Source: a phage
Length of the DNA: 64,000 bases
Sequence record: OZ346201.1
Reading direction: 5' to 3' (one strand)
Shown here: positions 16,482-32,546 of the stretch, one piece after another
How positions within the stretch are numbered: the stretch's first letter is position 1
How the letters are laid out: every line of letters begins with the position of its first letter
The notes under the pieces: model-generated
Databases searched by the model: none
What the model was told of the DNA's origin: nothing
The model's input: the letters and a program-made list of their open reading frames with translations, nothing else
Position numbers and translations under genes: made by a program

Positions 16482-16745
16482 TCAGAAACCCTCTAAAAAG
16501 CTCTTGTAGAAAACAATCTCAGTATCCACACCAGTCACAATCTTGTCGTTCCTGATTTCATCGGTAAGATAGGTGTCAAAACGCAGAACCTGTGTGGTGT
16601 TGTCACACATCCACTCAGCTGTGACCATTGCGAAAATCTTAGCATCTTCATTATCTGGTGTGAATGTTACCACCTCACCGCACTTAAACTTTTCGATAGG
16701 CTGAGTGTTAGCTTTCGGTTCTGCGATAGTGATTTTTGTGGTCAT
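16482..16745 (-). CDS. small protein, tandem paralog family member
   Basis: 87 aa; same length and pattern as the two following ORFs; 1-nt stop/start overlap. Confidence 0.6.
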   Translation of the reverse strand: MTTKITIAEPKANTQPIEKFKCGEVVTFTPDNEDAKIFAMVTAEWMCDNTTQVLRFDTYLTDEIRNDKIVTGVDTEIVFYKSFLEGF

Positions 16746-17008
16746 TATTCTCCTCCTTCTTTTGAATAGCTTGTCTCTCCAAGGATGGTAATTTTGGTGT
16801 CAAGCTCTGTAACTTTCATGTTTGGCGGCAGATCGTACAACTCATTATTTTCTAAATCGAACCCCCACACACAATGTTCTCCTGTTTTGACAATCATAAC
16901 TATGTTTTGAATGCCGTCTCCGTCGCAACTTACCACGGTCCCACACGGAAAACTGTCTGCACGCTTTTTGTTCTTCACCTTAGAATTGAATACAATGCTG
17001 GTAGCCAT
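16745..17008 (-). CDS. small protein, tandem paralog family member
   Basis: 87 aa; MAT.. N-terminus, G-T-VV core, TELD..ITILGE C-terminal motif. Confidence 0.6.
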   Translation of the reverse strand: MATSIVFNSKVKNKKRADSFPCGTVVSCDGDGIQNIVMIVKTGEHCVWGFDLENNELYDLPPNMKVTELDTKITILGETSYSKEGGE

Positions 17009-17271
17009 TATTGTTCCTCCACCATAACTTCGCCAAGAATTTCTATGCAGGCATCCATTTCTGTAACAACCAAACTGTGAGGTAGTTCTACAAACACCTT
17101 TCTGAACAGGTCAAATACCCCAACATATATGTTTGCAGGATGTGATTTTACAACAAGTGCTGTATTCACATCCCCAAGTTCATCAACAAACATCACCACA
17201 GTGCCCGGAGCTACTGAGGACAGATACTTCTTAGTTTTACGGTTTGATGCAAATTTTAACTCTGTTGCCAT
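17008..17271 (-). CDS. small protein, tandem paralog family member
   Basis: 87 aa; MATELKF.., ..TEMDACIEILGE..; head-to-tail with 16745..17008. Confidence 0.6.
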   Translation of the reverse strand: MATELKFASNRKTKKYLSSVAPGTVVMFVDELGDVNTALVVKSHPANIYVGVFDLFRKVFVELPHSLVVTEMDACIEILGEVMVEEQ

Positions 17272-17286
17272 AAATAACCTCCTCTC

Positions 17287-18768
17287 TTACTTAGCGTACT
17301 CGATTAATTCCACAGTTTTCCCAAAGCTCGGGATATAATTTTTATTATACCCCTCAGTGAGGACCCATAGAGTATCGTACTTTTTCCACTTGTTGTCAAC
17401 AACCTTTTGTTCAAAGTTATGCTCAAAGTATAGGTCGGTCAGGACGATGACATCTTTTGCATTAGGTATGTTGGCATCCAGATACTCGAACACGCAAGCA
17501 GCTGTTGTGCCCCATGTTGAGTGGACCTCATAGTTGATCATCTCGTCTATGTTGCCGCGAGTGTATACTTTAACCTCTCCAACCTCAGTTGACCAACAGA
17601 ACATTGTAACCTTAAACTCTTTATACAGATTGCACAATCCGGTGATTTCATTGAACATTTTCTTTAAAGTTCTTTGAGAGATCGAGCCAGAAACGTCTAA
17701 AGCCACCACAATATCTATAGTGTTTTCCGGATTACGACCAGGAACAATAACGTGCTGGTTCTTGTTTATAGCCCCAACTTTTCGCATTGTGCTGGTCAAA
17801 GACCCAGATCGGCGACCAGGTTTTCTGTAGGTCAGTTCGGCCTTTCTTTTAGACAACATACGTTGCTTAATGATGTCTATATAGTTGATTACAGGCTTAC
17901 CTCTGTTCTTGACAAACTCACGCACCGCCTCAGGGCAACGGCCTCCGGACGCTTGCATTGCTGCCTCCAGCATATCACCAGAGTCCTGCATGGCCTGATC
18001 TTTATCAGATTGGCTGATTACAGGTTGTGGCTGATCATACCCCATAGCCTTTCCAAGATTATCACTGGTGCCACCGTTCCCACTCATGTGATCATCGGTT
18101 TGTCGCTTATCACTTTGAGAGTTCTCACCTTTACCGTTCTTACTTTTACCGTTATTCTGATCTCTTTGCTTATCAAGAACTGCATAAACGTTCTCAGCAA
18201 TCCATCCATGAAACTTCATGTCGCAGTAGCAGCTGGCTAAGAAGCCAAAAGGCTTACCTTTCATGAACGTAGTGCTTTTCCCCTTCGGGAAGAAAACACA
18301 AGGAGGTTTGCTAAAGTCAACCACAAGGCCTGTGTTGATAACGTGATCACAAGCAATATTGAACAGTTCCGGCTCAAAGCTTTTACCACGGACTAGGTGA
18401 TCACAGATAATATGCCCCACCTCATGTGACAGAAGGAAGGCCACCTCTTTCACAGATTTTGGGGAATAGAAAACTTCAGCCATCTCAAACTGCTCGTCAG
18501 TTAGAGAAGCCTTAAGAATAGCCTTGCGTTCATCAGCCAATCCCATAATGAACTCAGGACTGTAATAGATGCGTTTATGGTCGGTTGCCATGGTGGAGCA
18601 CCATGTGTGGTTTTCTACGAACTGCAACCCTGACAGTAGTGTGCCATAAAACGGCAGCTTTTCAAGGAGATACATACGTGCAGCCTGCAACATTCTCAGG
18701 GCATCATCTTTCTGCGAGGCAATGATTTCTGAACTTCTGCTATCCATTAAAACTCCAGAAGGGGCCAT
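17287..18768 (-). CDS. vWA-domain protein with N-terminal HExxH metallopeptidase-like domain
   Basis: HEVGH motif (..AFLLSHEVGHIICDH..) in N-terminal half; MIDAS-like VVALDVSGSI (DxSxS) in C-terminal half. Confidence 0.75.
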   Translation of the reverse strand: MAPSGVLMDSRSSEIIASQKDDALRMLQAARMYLLEKLPFYGTLLSGLQFVENHTWCSTMATDHKRIYYSPEFIMGLADERKAILKASLTDEQFEMAEVFYSPKSVKEVAFLLSHEVGHIICDHLVRGKSFEPELFNIACDHVINTGLVVDFSKPPCVFFPKGKSTTFMKGKPFGFLASCYCDMKFHGWIAENVYAVLDKQRDQNNGKSKNGKGENSQSDKRQTDDHMSGNGGTSDNLGKAMGYDQPQPVISQSDKDQAMQDSGDMLEAAMQASGGRCPEAVREFVKNRGKPVINYIDIIKQRMLSKRKAELTYRKPGRRSGSLTSTMRKVGAINKNQHVIVPGRNPENTIDIVVALDVSGSISQRTLKKMFNEITGLCNLYKEFKVTMFCWSTEVGEVKVYTRGNIDEMINYEVHSTWGTTAACVFEYLDANIPNAKDVIVLTDLYFEHNFEQKVVDNKWKKYDTLWVLTEGYNKNYIPSFGKTVELIEYAK

Positions 18769-18780
18769 TGGCCCCTGTCA

Positions 18781-19575
18781 TTATTTAACGTGTTTGAAAA
18801 TACCTGCCAACTCGGTCATTGTCATGCGGGTGGTCTTCATAAGATCTGTCATAGCTTTCTCCATAATTGGAGATACTACCATAAAGTTTCCTTTAGTGAA
18901 ACCTTTATTCCAGTCGGTCACCAACAGGGGTTTAAGTCCAGCTCCAAGACGTTCACCAGTTAAAGCACAGCATTTGCGAATATACGAACTCTTAAATTGG
19001 CTGAACGACAGATCAACTTTCATACCTACATCGTAGAACGTTTGACAATAGAAAGTGTAAGCTTTGGCAATCTCAACATCATCAGGTAGTGCAGGAACCT
19101 CTTCTGTAAGCTCCTCTTCGACCTCCTGAGTCTCTTTTTCCTCTTCATGCACCTGTTGCGTCATTTCTTCAATCTCTTCTGTGATAGGCTCGTTTACAAT
19201 GTCGGAAATGTGCTTCTTGGGTGCACGATAAGTAACTTTAGACATCGGTAGCATATCTTCCTCCTCTTCTTCGTCAAAGAGTGCTAGTTTATCCTCTTCC
19301 GTTCCATATTGCAAGATGAAATCTTCAAAAGTATAATCACCTTTCAATTTCTCCATACGCTCTTCGCTCAGGTGGAGCATCATCTGCTGGACAATTTTTC
19401 GATCAGTTTCGTCTTTAATCAAGACTGCAGTCTTTTTATCTACCAGACAGTCCTTTAGAGAGTTGCATCTCAATCCCACCACACAACAGTTATCAACCGC
19501 ATAAGGACCTTCATCATCTATCCGCTCCAGAGATGGGTAGAAAGGATTCCCCAGCCCGTTTTCATCTGTGTGCAT
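18781..19575 (-). CDS. hypothetical acidic protein
   Basis: 264 aa with Glu-rich centre; first 23 codons lie inside the left arm of the 254-bp palindrome; has an internal LPMSKVTYRAP segment duplicated at the start of the ORF at 20791. Confidence 0.5.
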   Translation of the reverse strand: MHTDENGLGNPFYPSLERIDDEGPYAVDNCCVVGLRCNSLKDCLVDKKTAVLIKDETDRKIVQQMMLHLSEERMEKLKGDYTFEDFILQYGTEEDKLALFDEEEEEDMLPMSKVTYRAPKKHISDIVNEPITEEIEEMTQQVHEEEKETQEVEEELTEEVPALPDDVEIAKAYTFYCQTFYDVGMKVDLSFSQFKSSYIRKCCALTGERLGAGLKPLLVTDWNKGFTKGNFMVVSPIMEKAMTDLMKTTRMTMTELAGIFKHVK

Positions 19576-19760
19576 GTCAAAAGGTATAAGGGTATAGTCG
19601 CATACTCCATCTCCTAAAAGTTTTTTACCAAATATTTGGTAAAAAACTTTTAGGAGATGGAGTATGCGACTATACCCTTATACCTTTTGACATGCACACA
19701 GATGAAAACGGGCTGGGGAATCCTTTCTACCCATCTCTGGAGCGGATAGATGATGAAGGT
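19507..19760. repeat. perfect 254-bp palindrome (two 127-bp inverted arms, no spacer)
   Basis: Right arm 19634-19760 is the exact reverse complement of left arm 19507-19633, checked block by block; centre ACCAAAT|ATTTGGT. Confidence 0.9.
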
Positions 19761-20502
19761 TATTGAGCGTAGATTGGTATCTGGGTCTGATAAGTGGACA
19801 TATTTAGATAATGAAGGACACACCTATTCCAATGGGTATGTCGATATAAAAGTAGAATACGCGGTATCATACCGCCGGAGCGGTTCTGTAACTTTCAACT
19901 TCTCTGGAGGTTTTCGATCTCTGGCTACCTCACCTTTTGTTTCCTCAGAGGAGAAGTATGAGCTGCCATTTCTTTGGATGATGGCTAACGCGACAGGAAA
20001 AACCCCCGTTAGCATCCGAGTAAAATACAACTACAACGGATCTAGTAAGATCTATGCCGAAAGTGTCTCAGCAAGTTTTTATTTTGTGATGGGGGATGGA
20101 ATCCTCAAACATATAAAGATGTGCGATATGCATGATGTTATAAATGAAGTGACTGATAAGAATGTTCTAGTGAAAGACCTCAACAATTTTTATACACCCG
20201 GAGACTATTACGTCAGCCGTCCACTGTGCATCTTTAATGCCGCACACCCTCTAGGTGAGTATTTGATCGCCAATAGCGATATTGCCAATAACCGCTTCGA
20301 GGTAGCAAGAGTTCAGAATGAGGTATTGACATCTTGCAAGAGCGGTGATAAGTTTACCGAAGAAGAGATGGGTGTTTTAGAAATGATGGGATATAAGTGT
20401 AGCCTTTGGGTAGATGAGGTGTTCAATGATTGCATCTATGGACAGGATATTTACCCATTAAAGAAGTATACTGATTCCAGTTTAATTTACGCGGAGATTT
20501 GA
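19750..20502 (+). CDS. hypothetical protein
   Basis: 250-aa ORF; start codon lies in the last 11 nt of the palindrome right arm. Confidence 0.55.
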   Translation: MMKVIERRLVSGSDKWTYLDNEGHTYSNGYVDIKVEYAVSYRRSGSVTFNFSGGFRSLATSPFVSSEEKYELPFLWMMANATGKTPVSIRVKYNYNGSSKIYAESVSASFYFVMGDGILKHIKMCDMHDVINEVTDKNVLVKDLNNFYTPGDYYVSRPLCIFNAAHPLGEYLIANSDIANNRFEVARVQNEVLTSCKSGDKFTEEEMGVLEMMGYKCSLWVDEVFNDCIYGQDIYPLKKYTDSSLIYAEI

Positions 20503-20777
20503 CTATGATGAAGTCATGTGGTAGTGTATATTATGTTGGTGAGAATGTTCAGGCAGATAGTGTGTGGAAATCCATTAAGTCCACCACCGATGATGCCTTT
20601 CTGAGCGGGTTATGTTTTCCCAGCCCAGGGGACACTCTCCCTTACCCTGGAGATTTTGTTGTCAACAAGATGGACGGTTATACCGTGTGCCTGATGGTTG
20701 AAAAAATCTTTTTAGACACTAGACACAATCACCGTCTTGTGTTAAAATTTCAAGAATGTAAAATGACAATTGCCTAA
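20499..20777 (+). CDS. hypothetical protein
   Basis: 92-aa ORF overlapping stop of upstream gene. Confidence 0.5.
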   Translation: MTMMKSCGSVYYVGENVQADSVWKSIKSTTDDAFLSGLCFPSPGDTLPYPGDFVVNKMDGYTVCLMVEKIFLDTRHNHRLVLKFQECKMTIA

Positions 20778-20790
20778 GGAGACCTTGCCG

Positions 20791-21147
20791 ATGTCTAAAG
20801 TTACTTATCGTGCAGCTATTTACTGCAATGAACACCCAATCAATAATGATGGTCACTGCCTTTTTAAAGAAAATCAATTGGGCTGTATTGTCCTCCCTGA
20901 TGAAGGGGAAGGTTATCTGATTGCGTTGACAGGGTTTGAACCTGAAGCTCTGGAAGCCAATCTTGACTACCTGGTAGAGGAGGGTGCTGCAGACCTGGTT
21001 GCCAATGGCCTCTCCATAAGCCTTGACGAAGTGGAGCGCTTCATGGGCAATTACCGTGTAGTGCGTGAGTTTACTATCGAGGTGGAAACTCCCGAGTGGG
21101 GTAGCCATGAAACTAATGCCGAAGAAAAAGAAGAGGAGGTAGAATAA
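20791..21147 (+). CDS. hypothetical acidic protein
   Basis: ATG at 20791 with AAGGAGA 8 nt upstream preferred over track start 20770; N-terminus MSKVTYRA is encoded by a 27-bp segment also present inverted at 19222-19248. Confidence 0.5.
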   Translation: MSKVTYRAAIYCNEHPINNDGHCLFKENQLGCIVLPDEGEGYLIALTGFEPEALEANLDYLVEEGAADLVANGLSISLDEVERFMGNYRVVREFTIEVETPEWGSHETNAEEKEEEVE

Positions 21148-21404
21148 TGAAAGTGCAGATCTTGACTAATGCCGAGAAGATGTTTATTGAAGATACACCT
21201 TTTGAAGCTGGTGAGCTACAGTTCGTTTATTTTGTTGACTTAGATAAGGTGTTTCCTGCACTGAATCTAGGTTTGGATGAAGTTCCTCATAAGGTTTTGT
21301 GCCAAGTTGTTCGTGCCTTAGCGGCAGAGGGGGAGTTCCACACCCTTCAAGATATCCAGACCTACGGGTATCTTGAACTACAACGAGAAGAAGAGGTGGA
21401 CTGA
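21147..21404 (+). CDS. hypothetical protein
   Basis: 85-aa ORF, ATGA-type overlap with upstream gene. Confidence 0.5.
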   Translation: MKVQILTNAEKMFIEDTPFEAGELQFVYFVDLDKVFPALNLGLDEVPHKVLCQVVRALAAEGEFHTLQDIQTYGYLELQREEEVD

Positions 21405-21406
21405 TA

Positions 21407-21787
21407 ATGGCTCAGTGGAAGACAACAGTTGACCTTCATGATCAGTGGTTAGGACGCATCACTGAAGACGGGAAGCTAGTGGAGTGGGACAATAAGCATG
21501 TTAGCGAGTTGGCAAGTATTGTGGCTGGCAAGTTACGCTCCAAGTTCCCTGAACAACTGGATCCTGATAGTTCAAAGTTCGATCCTGAGTTAGAGGATGT
21601 TGTATACTACTTCGACACCGTTGATGACTACGACGCGTGGTTTGCAGCACGGGAGCTTTACCCACAAGGCTCTGCTATGCGCCAGATGGAAGAAGATTAT
21701 CCTCCGTGTGAGCAATTCAATAGTGCAATGACTTGCCTCTATGATTGGGCAGATAAGAACCTTGTCTGGATTCGGACTGCATTTTAG
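21407..21787 (+). CDS. hypothetical protein
   Basis: 126-aa ORF. Confidence 0.5.
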   Translation: MAQWKTTVDLHDQWLGRITEDGKLVEWDNKHVSELASIVAGKLRSKFPEQLDPDSSKFDPELEDVVYYFDTVDDYDAWFAARELYPQGSAMRQMEEDYPPCEQFNSAMTCLYDWADKNLVWIRTAF

Positions 21788-21831
21788 TGGGCAGGAATGG
21801 CGGCAAGGATGCTGCTTAAGGAGTAGTAGAG

Positions 21832-22101
21832 ATGTTATACCAGCAATATGAACTTCGTGCAGAAAAAGAGTTAAATTTTGACAAAGATATTCACAGATAT
21901 TATTATGGGAAAGTTAGAGGGCAAGCAAGAAAGTGTACTCCAACACTCTTTTATGCCAGCAGACGACTAGCGCCAGAAGAGGCAACAGCAGAAAGGGTTG
22001 CGTACAACTGGAGAGTCACGTATGATATTGACAGATTCGATGTGATATCTGTTTTGGAAAACTTTGAAAACACTTACACACAAGTAGAGGACTTTTACTA
22101 A
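21832..22101 (+). CDS. hypothetical protein
   Basis: 89-aa ORF. Confidence 0.5.
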   Translation: MLYQQYELRAEKELNFDKDIHRYYYGKVRGQARKCTPTLFYASRRLAPEEATAERVAYNWRVTYDIDRFDVISVLENFENTYTQVEDFY

Positions 22102-23285
22102 TGTCAAGAAACGTATTCGAAAGTGGTCAAATCACTGTCCGTGAGTTGCCAGCTATTATTCAGTTTGCCCAACGTCATAGCCGATCTGTCCTAATTTTGG
22201 GACCAATGGGTGTGGGTAAAAGCCAGGTGATGAAGCAGATCGCTGATAATATGTTCGGTGAGCGAGATGACAACCTTGTTGACGTGCGACTGTCAGATAA
22301 AGATCCTGCCGACTTATCTGGGCTACCTATCCCTGTAGAAGCGGATGGAACTACACGTACAGTGTTTGCAATTCCAGAATTTTGGCCTGCGGATCCTGAC
22401 TGGAGCGGAATTATCTTTCTGGATGAGCTCACTCATGCAGATAACTACCTGCAAAAGGTTGCAATGCAAATTATGCTTGACCACAAGTGCGGCACCTATG
22501 CATTCCCTAAGGGTTCTGTTTTTGTGGCTGCGGGTAACCGTTCTACAGATGGTGCGGTTCTTTCGGCGCTCGAAGCCCCTCTGGCTAACCGTTTTATCAT
22601 TGTAGAGGTTACAAGCAATGCAGAGGTGTTTATTGAGGACTACGCATTCCTCAACGGGGTTCACTCCTCTGTAATTGGGTATCTGAAAAGAGTTCCATCA
22701 GCTATTGATAATTATGAGGCTATGGCTGAGATTAATTGTCCATCTTTTGCCACACCACGATCTTGGGTTGCTGCATCTGACATCTTGCACGATTTTGACA
22801 GCGGTATTATTTCTGACGCTATGGCCCGTGTTCTTCTACAAGGTGCTATTGGTCACACTGCAGCGGTAGAGATCTGGACTTACCACACCAAGAAACGTAA
22901 TTTACCGGAAATCGGTCGGATTATGGCAGGTGGCTGCAAAGAATACGTAGGTCCTAAGCAGCCAGACATTTTGTGGATTCTTGGATCTGAAGGTTGTATC
23001 GCTATTCGCAATATGATGGAAAATGCAAGTATCTCCGACGAAGATCTTGTTAGCTGTGTGGCAAACTTCCTCGATTTCCTTTGGGAAAATTTCAAGGACG
23101 AGAACCGAGATTTTGTATTCTCAGTCTTTATGGCGATGATGAAACCTAACGCCTTAGGAAATGCCTTGCTTATCGGTAAAGGGCGTGACAAGATTGTTGC
23201 TCAGTTGATCAAAGCATATCCAAACCTGATGAAGATTGTAAAAGAGTTTGGTGAAGAGTTTAGCGCCATTTTGGCTAAAGCTTAA
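22101..23285 (+). CDS. MoxR/CobS-like AAA+ ATPase
   Basis: Walker A GPMGVGKSQ, Walker B IIFLDELTHAD, MoxR-type PLANRF segment. Confidence 0.8.
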   Translation: MSRNVFESGQITVRELPAIIQFAQRHSRSVLILGPMGVGKSQVMKQIADNMFGERDDNLVDVRLSDKDPADLSGLPIPVEADGTTRTVFAIPEFWPADPDWSGIIFLDELTHADNYLQKVAMQIMLDHKCGTYAFPKGSVFVAAGNRSTDGAVLSALEAPLANRFIIVEVTSNAEVFIEDYAFLNGVHSSVIGYLKRVPSAIDNYEAMAEINCPSFATPRSWVAASDILHDFDSGIISDAMARVLLQGAIGHTAAVEIWTYHTKKRNLPEIGRIMAGGCKEYVGPKQPDILWILGSEGCIAIRNMMENASISDEDLVSCVANFLDFLWENFKDENRDFVFSVFMAMMKPNALGNALLIGKGRDKIVAQLIKAYPNLMKIVKEFGEEFSAILAKA

Positions 23286-31781: not shown

Positions 31782-32546
31782 TTGAAATTTATCTACAAAG
31801 AACACTACCACAAAGGTGTTGTGTGGAGCCTGTTTGACGGATCTGGTGGTGCAGTCATTGACTGGGCAAAAGCTGGGTATCTGTGCCTGTGCTTTAATGC
31901 AGAAGGTGCTGATCACGGCAGTTATGCAGAGGTGATAACCGATCATCCCAACATTCACTATGTGGATTATTGGATTGACCCATGGTTCCCTCAGGAAACT
32001 TTTTGCATGTACCCAGCTCCAGACTTTATTCTTGCATTTCCTCCGTGCACGCATTTAGCGGTATCAGGTGCTGCACATTTTAAGAAAAAGCTGGCTAAGG
32101 ATCCTTTGATCCAAATTAATGCTGTAAAGGATGCTCGGGTTGCGGAAGAGTTGGGAGAGATTTACGATTGCCCGTGGCATGTAGAGAATCCTGTAGGGGT
32201 TATGTCCACACTGTGGCGAAAACCTGATTACCGTTTTCATCCTTCGGATTATGGTGGGTATTTACCGGAGGATGATGTAAACCCCTGGTTTCCTGAATTT
32301 ATAGCTCCACGTGATGCCTATCCAAAAATAACTTGCGGCTGGATAGGCAATGGATTTATAATCCCGGCCACAAAACCTGTCCCGCAAATAGTTGACGCGG
32401 TTAGCGGGTATTCCATGCAACACGCCAAGCTGGGTGGAAAGAGTGCAAGAACGAAGATGATCCGAAGCCTCACGCCACGTGGCTGGGCAAAAGCCGTATT
32501 CTTAGCAAACGAGCCTGTAGTAAGGAGCAGAATTAATGGGAAGTAA
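31782..32546 (+). CDS. short DNA cytosine-C5 methyltransferase-like protein
   Basis: Motif I-like LFDGSGG, motif IV-like FPPC (catalytic Cys), motif VI-like HVENPVG; TTG start at 31782 with AGGAGA 7 nt upstream preferred over track GTG at 31752, which lies inside the terminator hairpin. Confidence 0.6.
   Translation: MKFIYKEHYHKGVVWSLFDGSGGAVIDWAKAGYLCLCFNAEGADHGSYAEVITDHPNIHYVDYWIDPWFPQETFCMYPAPDFILAFPPCTHLAVSGAAHFKKKLAKDPLIQINAVKDARVAEELGEIYDCPWHVENPVGVMSTLWRKPDYRFHPSDYGGYLPEDDVNPWFPEFIAPRDAYPKITCGWIGNGFIIPATKPVPQIVDAVSGYSMQHAKLGGKSARTKMIRSLTPRGWAKAVFLANEPVVRSRINGK

Follow-up and report, generated by a model that had tools for sequence, protein, structure and literature searches.

The 64,000-nucleotide stretch of phage sequence record OZ346201.1 analysed here (the window, meaning the whole of that stretch) carries two genes on opposite strands, one for a divergent MoxR-class AAA+ ATPase and the other for a protein in which a zincin-like metallopeptidase domain is fused to a von Willebrand factor A (vWA) domain, here called the partner. 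The window is an rV5-like Vequintavirus: a region of about 6.5 kb shares 97–99.4% identity with over 100 rV5-like coliphages of this genus and is matched by 122 phage records, with at least 80% coverage in 115 of them. The module in the window is carried by a 137-kb myovirus. The two genes and their motifs are arranged as follows.

17287..18768, minus strand: zincin-vWA partner, 493 aa; N4 gp25 family; phrog_1314, E 5.3e-123
18154..18741, minus strand: N-terminal zincin-like metallopeptidase domain of the partner, about residues 10–205; HEVGH at 18412–18426; DUF2201_N match
17290..17733, minus strand: C-terminal vWA domain of the partner, about residues 346–493; complete MIDAS (metal ion-dependent adhesion site); DVSGS at 17683–17697
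22101..23285, plus strand: MoxR-class AAA+ ATPase, 394 aa; N4 gp24 family; phrog_1297, E 2.2e-110
22200..22223, plus strand: Walker A GPMGVGKS, residues 34–41; G37, G39, K40 and S41 invariant in the 26-sequence alignment
22410..22427, plus strand: Walker B IIFLDE, residues 104–109; D108 and E109 invariant
22578..22595, plus strand: PLANRF, residues 160–165; P160, L161, N163 and R164 invariant
22749..22766, plus strand: ATPRSW in the lid, residues 217–222; A217, P219, R220 and W222 invariant

An earlier sequence-only reading of this DNA had taken the open reading frame (ORF) at 22101..23285 for a MoxR-like ATPase on the strength of GPMGVGKSQ (residues 34–42), IIFLDELTHAD (104–114) and PLANRF (160–165). 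The ORF and all three motifs are there, and the class assignment was borne out by homologues, sequence profile and predicted fold. N146/R147 (AGNR) are likewise invariant in the 26-sequence ATPase alignment, the ATPase motifs are intact in 80/80 viral homologues, and among the homologues taken from the gathered loci K40, S41 and R164 are conserved in 169/169 and R220 in 168 of the 169, with each of the motifs GxGKS, DE, AGNR, PLxNR and ATPRxW kept in 168–169 of them. The MoxR-class residue set (Walker A, Walker B, sensor-1 asparagine, arginine finger and sensor-2 arginine) is present and conserved, with the arginine roles assigned by inference: R164 is the candidate arginine finger and R220 the candidate sensor-2 arginine.

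Direct searches of Pfam, NCBIfam and the PDB gave sub-threshold P-loop matches (NCBIfam had no above-threshold match for the window ATPase, and the PDB sequence search with the ATPase alone returned P-loop matches only, e.g. ClpB/ClpC at 1e-4), and the placement among MoxR proteins was therefore made via homologues, a family profile and a structure model. The ATPase has thousands of homologues, of which those at E 1e-44 to 1e-41 (31–38% identity, 70–92% coverage) bear AAA_3, AAA_5 and sometimes bpMoxR. Of the 26 aligned sequences, 13 reach E ≤ 1e-3 against both AAA_3 and AAA_5 (best 2.4e-9) and five match bpMoxR weakly; none of the 13 rV5-like members matches AAA_3 or AAA_5 individually. When the 26 sequences were searched as a profile, the best solved relative was midasin/Rea1, a eukaryotic AAA_5 ring (7.5e-11).

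The AlphaFold (AF2) model of the ATPase (predicted local distance difference test, pLDDT, 84.7; predicted template modelling score, pTM, 0.79) has NorQ or CbbQ2 as its top 14 Foldseek matches in the PDB, and RFC, Clp, MCM and dynein rank lower. NorQ and CbbQ2 are bona fide MoxR ATPases with vWA partners. The NorQ and CbbQ matches lie at Foldseek E 5e-8 to 1e-6 with target-normalised template modelling (TM) scores of 0.59–0.66, but their sequence identity to the phage ATPase is only 16–23%, and a C-terminal helical stretch of the phage protein (about residues 240–394) is additional, beyond the NorQ and CbbQ structures. A DSSP assignment of the predicted model places a hairpin (E75–81/E84–90) between β2 and β3 and short strands at about residues 129–134 before β4; a β-hairpin insert in helix 2 and a pre-sensor-1 β-hairpin are the traits expected of the helix-2-insert clade. 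The product of 22101–23285 is a divergent MoxR-class AAA+ ATPase whose own sequence stays below the Pfam cut-off.

For the second protein the same reading had noted an HExxH motif and a vWA motif and had named the DUF2201-type metallopeptidases as a family to check, and this is the family to which it belongs. HEVGH (residues 115–119) and VVALDVSGSI (354–363) are both encoded by ORF 17287..18768, and Pfam finds DUF2201_N at 99.1 bits (cut-off 23.2) and DUF2201 at 43.0 bits (cut-off 26.4) (PF13203 and PF09967), which makes the protein a fusion of an HExxH zincin of the DUF2201 type with a vWA/MIDAS domain. Its translation most likely starts at the second ATG, at 18747, to give a product of 486 aa, because GGAG lies 7 nt upstream of this codon, the first ATG falls within a hairpin and the annotated relatives are 486 aa long. 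In a 30-sequence alignment that reaches down to about 20% identity, the zincin residues H115/E116/H119/H124/D141 are invariant, as are D358/S360/G361/S362, G420/T421 and T444/D445 of the vWA domain, which has the vWA fold and a complete MIDAS (DxSxS, T, D). The same zincin residues and the MIDAS residues are kept in 61/61 full-length viral partners. All five motifs quoted in the earlier reading thus fall on invariant columns of the two alignments and are no chance matches. The zincin domain, which is modelled with pLDDT >90 over most of its length, shows weak profile similarity to the minigluzincin MJ1213 and to M48 peptidases, and the structural matches of the partner include the vWA domains of NorD and the MIDAS domain of midasin. 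A profile search puts the partner family at 32,399 representative clusters. Members of the family are variously labelled ‘HNH endonuclease’ (PHROGs, RefSeq), ‘anti-sigma factor’ (several GenBank records) and ‘DNA repair ATPase’ (one record); domain searches of the family, including N4 gp25 (L007:6165–7307, where L numbers denote loci of our collection), lend no support to any of these labels.

That the two proteins work as a pair, also part of the earlier reading, received very strong gene-neighbourhood evidence. Loci were gathered with the ATPase alignment (80 viral from IMG/VR and 80 bacterial) and counted if they had enough flank, which for viral loci meant at least 1.5 kb downstream. The partner is present in 70/70 viral loci, immediately downstream and on the same strand in 65, and in 74/75 cellular loci, adjacent and on the same strand in 64. 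The genes are adjacent in N4 (gp24/gp25), RPP1, a Sulfitobacter N4-like phage, GAP32, metagenomic phages and the Sulfurivermis chromosome. The paired identities to the two window proteins fall together (0.51/0.45, 0.34/0.35, 0.24/0.23), and the two proteins diverge in parallel with r = 0.95 over 154 loci (Mantel 0/999). Both genes are kept at ≥95% identity in about 118 Vequintavirus records. The ATPase and its partner are a near-obligatory pair.

In the window, the pair lies on opposite strands, 3,291 bp apart and with seven ORFs between, and not in the adjacent, co-directional layout of N4. LL12, L010 and the 53%-identical L011 share the split with the window, and the opposite-strand arrangement at a distance of about 3.3–3.8 kb is found only in these rV5-like loci. 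In the sister genus Certrevirus (P7_Pc), the ATPase, an HNH_3 homing endonuclease and the partner follow one another on one strand, which argues that the split is derived and arose by rearrangement in the rV5-like lineage. The split, divergent layout alone is specific to that lineage. The HNH_3 insert of Pectobacterium phage P7_Pc is at L008:6188–6685 (Pfam 2.3e-21). The idea that the HNH-like gene beside the rV5-like partner is the same homing endonuclease as in Certrevirus, and that it caused the inversion, was rejected, as the two have zero similarity and the LL12 protein is without a Pfam domain.

The pair had been described as something other than a standard phage module. This was wrong, because it is widespread and annotated in phages. 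Among 50,697 phage records, 813 hold a homologue of the ATPase and 621 one of the partner, N4-like podoviruses and jumbo phages included; the rV5 record DQ832317.1 already reads ‘MoxR ATPase’, and other GenBank records of the rV5-like group give ‘VWA-like domain containing protein’ and ‘metallopeptidase’. Chan et al. 2014 counted gp24 and gp25 (‘vWFA domain’) in the set of 14 genes that form the core of all N4-like phages (PMC4193335), and Iyer et al. 2021 (Viruses 13:63) described a MoxR and metallopeptidase-vWA pair in group 2.2 jumbo phages (PMC7824862). The existence and identity of the pair are thus already known; of the earlier interpretation, the identities and the pairing stood and the rarity fell.

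The N4 proteins are homologous to those of the window (gp24 to the ATPase by tblastn at 7e-21, 27% identity over 88% of the query; gp25 to the partner by BLASTP at 2e-20) and have the same domain architecture. The rV5 partner differs from that of N4 in that its zincin domain has gained some 40 residues by insertion (alignment columns 125–170), and it is about 100 aa longer. The pair of the group 2.2 jumbo phages has the architecture found in the window, and homologues from GAP32, G17 and CBB were recovered in our searches. The jumbo-phage paper noted the pair only for jumbo phages and suggested for it a role in virion assembly and processing, whereas the copy in the window stands in a replication-gene context.

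Four known systems bear on how such a pair might work. In NorQ-NorD and CbbQ-CbbO, as here, the ATPase has a dedicated vWA adaptor with a MIDAS, and the vWA finger of NorD enters the NorQ pore while NorQ remodels the NorD linker (PMC13036017); NorD and CbbO, however, have no peptidase domain, and their targets are respiratory or carbon-fixation enzymes, which are absent here. Midasin/Rea1, the solved protein nearest to the ATPase in the profile search, shares the logic of a MIDAS that grips a carboxylate of the substrate and an AAA ring that supplies force, but it joins six AAA modules in a single giant chain with its own MIDAS domain, has no peptidase and serves ribosome biogenesis. Among virus-encoded MoxR-vWA pairs, experimental data exist only for that of ATV (Acidianus two-tailed virus), in which the MoxR protein p618 binds the vWA protein p892 and tail proteins, p892 stimulates the ATPase, and p618 is a virion component (PMC4124505). 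ATV differs in being an archaeal virus, in which p618 is a major virion protein with a part in extracellular tail growth and p892 is without a peptidase domain. By analogy with these systems, the phage ATPase would form a hexamer that engages the vWA partner (as in NorQ-NorD, CbbQ-CbbO, Rea1/midasin and ATV p618-p892), the MIDAS would grip a target protein by a carboxylate, ATP hydrolysis would remodel the linker of the partner and/or the target, and the zincin domain would then cut the target. The whole may be pictured as a trans-acting ‘grip, pull and clip’ machine, with a partner built of a zincin, a flexible linker and a vWA adaptor. Our best guess is that it would act on a protein of the host or the phage, at the early-to-middle (replication) stage.

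The timing in this model is taken from gene context. The N4 pair lies among middle/replication genes with rIIA/rIIB downstream (a dCTP deaminase follows immediately and rIIA comes a few genes on), and gp24 and gp25 are middle transcripts (PMC4193335). In the window the ATPase heads the block that runs through rIIA and rIIB to the DNA polymerase. A deaminase and ThyX or Thy1 accompany the pair in roseophages, ThyA in GAP32, and a 5′-3′ exonuclease, a radical-SAM enzyme, ThyA and small uncharacterised genes in a large metagenomic phage clade. We propose, with a probability of roughly 0.55, that the window carries the rV5-lineage copy of an N4 gp24/gp25-type module in which a MoxR motor and a zincin-vWA adaptor would together constitute a replication-phase remodelling and cleavage machine.

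The peptidase part of the module has a different history in one clade of cellular relatives. In 70 Campylobacterota chromosomal partners (loci L090–L169, e.g. L131:10990–12189, a cellular sample biased to the closest relatives of the query), the MIDAS and the ATPase motifs are intact, but the catalytic glutamate is replaced by G, T, A or V in 59/70 and H115 is asparagine in 39/70. The Campylobacterota zincin domain would accordingly be a peptidase-dead scaffold, and an active peptidase appears to be a feature of the viral and some bacterial versions. In about 25 Campylobacterota loci (e.g. L144:1591–1962) the gene just upstream of the ATPase belongs to the NifQ family (Pfam 6e-17), and an ArsC-family gene stands downstream in 27. 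There are hints of a cofactor-maturation role for the cellular versions.

A narrower form of the proposal would make the module a protease that is gated by ATP and acts in trans in the replication phase, and not an assembly chaperone, with proteolysis as a virus-specific addition. The MoxR ring would pull on the zincin-vWA partner as NorQ pulls on NorD, and a host or phage protein captured by the MIDAS would be exposed or delivered to the zincin site. The notion of a virus-specific addition comes from the contrast between the viral copies, which always keep the active site, and the Campylobacterota chromosomal clade, which has lost it. We put this narrower form forward tentatively, as possible rather than probable.

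Several points weigh against the broader proposal of a replication-phase remodelling and cleavage machine: (i) the window ATPase falls below all Pfam AAA thresholds (AAA_14 at 20.7 bits with a cut-off of 27, AAA_5 at 16.7 with a cut-off of 22); (ii) any two genes with a common genome history should show such a correlation in their divergence; (iii) gene position and early/middle timing are weak evidence on function, and in GAP32 a head-completion gene is found 5 kb upstream; (iv) the proposal of Iyer et al. 2021 favours virion assembly; (v) the loss of the catalytic glutamate in the Campylobacterota clade indicates that the core activity of a MoxR-vWA pair can do without proteolysis, which might be secondary in phages too; and (vi) the literature searched yielded no experimental study of these phage proteins (neither gene has data in the CRISPRi-ART and Cas13a work on EdH4 and N4), so mechanism and target rest on analogy.

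Of the other functions considered, a virion-assembly chaperone with peptidolytic processing of structural proteins survives best, although we regard it as unlikely. It is a published comparative-genomics proposal, which Iyer et al. drew by analogy with ATV p618/p892 (PMC7824862), and the binding of p618 to both p892 and tail proteins and its presence in the virion speak for it (PMC4124505), as do the head-completion gene that GAP32 has about 5 kb upstream of its two genes and an RPP1 ‘second structural module’ a few genes downstream. Against it stand the early/middle replication or nucleotide-metabolism blocks in which the pair is found in N4-like and rV5-like phages, GAP32 and the large metagenomic clade, the middle transcription of N4 gp24/gp25 (PMC4193335) and the window itself, where the tail-fibre block ends about 5 kb away, beyond the leftward gene cluster. 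RPP1 was also inspected for virion proteins near the pair that might include the ATPase or the partner, and this was rejected: the annotated structural proteins are orf25 and orf28, the ATPase is orf19 and the partner is orf21, so neither is among them. The assembly proposal is disfavoured because of this replication-module context and early/middle timing. Judged purely from context and timing, a replication-phase role is more likely than one in virion assembly.

The odds that we give to counter-defence or host takeover, in which the module would capture and cleave or inactivate a host protein early (for instance a sensor or effector of immunity, or a transcription or nucleoid factor), are low. 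Such a role would agree with the early/middle placement by rIIA/rIIB, which counter Rex exclusion (PMC11879866), with the use of vWA-MoxR modules in bacterial conflict systems (PMC7159879) and with an active-looking peptidase that is strictly kept in viral copies and lost in the chromosomal clade. PADLOC gave no defence-model match, however, as the ATPase has P-loop-level matches only (E ≥ 0.0028) and the partner has none. Nor do the Pfam annotations beside the viral pairs contain the third component (VMAP, β-propeller or FtsH) of the vWA-MoxR ternary conflict systems of Kaur et al. 2020, a comparison made without a direct VMAP search. Furthermore, this is a core pair of all N4-like phages, with Alpha- and Gammaproteobacterial hosts, and a housekeeping function fits that distribution better than a host-specific arms race.

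Insertion of a metal cofactor, or maturation of a phage or host metalloenzyme of nucleotide metabolism in the manner of NorQD, CoxDE, CbbQO and CobST, is improbable in our estimate. NorQ and CbbQ are the closest solved folds, the NifQ-family gene stands beside about 25 Campylobacterota loci, ferrochelatase and thioredoxin genes lie near the Sulfurivermis pair, and the phage neighbours include ThyX/ThyA, deaminases and the radical-SAM enzyme, all of which would suit this role. No single metalloenzyme neighbour is common to all phage lineages, though, and none lies within 5 kb in the window; neither protein matches CobS, CobT or Mg-chelatase of the chelatase pairs (CobS/CobT, BchI/BchD) in Pfam or NCBIfam, or shows a CbbQ_C-type Pfam match, and a cofactor role leaves the strict conservation of the viral peptidase site unexplained. 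BchD does appear for the partner, as one among many generic vWA fold matches. Finally, a coincidental co-presence of two functionally unrelated genes, which their distance of 3.3 kb, opposite strands and seven intervening ORFs might suggest in this phage, is scarcely credible given the near-universal pairing elsewhere, the retention of both genes in about 118 related genomes, the parallel divergence of the two proteins and the co-directional Certrevirus pair with only a homing endonuclease between.

The remaining features of the locus are listed below in map order.

Up to about 12.5 kb: tail-fibre genes
Leftward small-gene cluster: ends with the zincin-vWA gene 17287–18768 and the uncharacterised gene 18781–19575
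18781..19575, minus strand: leftward-unit gene directly upstream of the partner; phrog_3118
Between the leftward cluster and the rightward block: divergent junction
19498..19769: inverted duplication (‘palindrome’) of 136 nt with no spacer; arms 19498–19633 and 19634–19769, 97% reverse complements
Rightward block, in order: six small genes, the ATPase 22101–23285, an uncharacterised gene, a SleB-like hydrolase, rIIA and rIIB
Rightward block, continued: a Dda-like helicase, a methyltransferase, a primase-helicase and a DNA polymerase
21832..22101, plus strand: 89-aa ORF, phrog_13164; its stop overlaps the ATPase start (TAATG)

The sequence-only reading placed the two genes divergently around the palindrome. 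They do lie on opposite strands on either side of it, but they do not adjoin it: one ORF separates it from the partner and six from the ATPase. Compared with LL12, the window is normal up to 19633, folds back, and is normal again from about 19750. About 430 bp of the normal junction are lost, including both predicted promoters and the 5′ ends of two flanking frames annotated in LL12. In intact relatives, back-to-back σ70-like promoters (consensus matches only, each at 10/12 positions) form one shared region that heads both transcription units, the one with the ATPase and the one with the partner. The centre of the palindrome is spanned by none of the 50,697 phage records, by no collected locus and not by a 98%-identical IMG/VR contig. 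Short inverted microhomologies at the rejoining point of the intact junction fit template switching. The palindrome, which is private to this sequence and does not belong to the MoxR-vWA module, represents either a deletion mutant or a fold-back chimera of assembly or library. Truncated ORFs were used to look for an independent assembly with the palindrome: the 264-aa product in OV101294.1 was rejected as a mere shorter gene call at a normal junction, and the 250-aa truncated product is on no record.

The gene at 18781..19575, which database records label ‘anti-sigma factor’ or ‘HNH endonuclease’, corresponds to a 325-aa frame in a relative and is cut at its 5′ end in the window; no Pfam domain is found in its product, the full-length LL12 protein included. 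On the other side of the partner gene, directly downstream at 16482–17271 (minus strand), three back-to-back 87-aa ORFs are diverged tandem paralogues with 18–28% identity that have G-x-V-V and V-T-x-x-D-x-x-I motifs in common. The 89-aa ORF and the ATPase are probably translationally coupled, and the phrog_13164 label ‘ATPase’ on the former has no Pfam support. A σ70-like match at 11/12 positions (TTGACA, 17 nt, TATTAT) lies inside the 89-aa ORF at 21878–21906, about 200 nt upstream of the ATPase start. Sixteen ‘Campylobacter phage’ records with C. jejuni as host (including MG065635.1, MG065647.1 and MG065655.1) are 98–99% identical here to Escherichia rV5-like phages, which suggests mislabelled hosts or contaminating coliphages.

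The pair merits experiment as one of the few N4-like core gene pairs that lack a known role, and it recurs in rV5-like and jumbo phages. The module unites three well-understood parts, with MoxR as the motor, the MIDAS as the grip and the zincin as the blade. The question of what it does is sharpened by its replication or early/middle setting in four lineages, by a viral peptidase site that is never lost and by the derived split of the two genes in the rV5-like phages.

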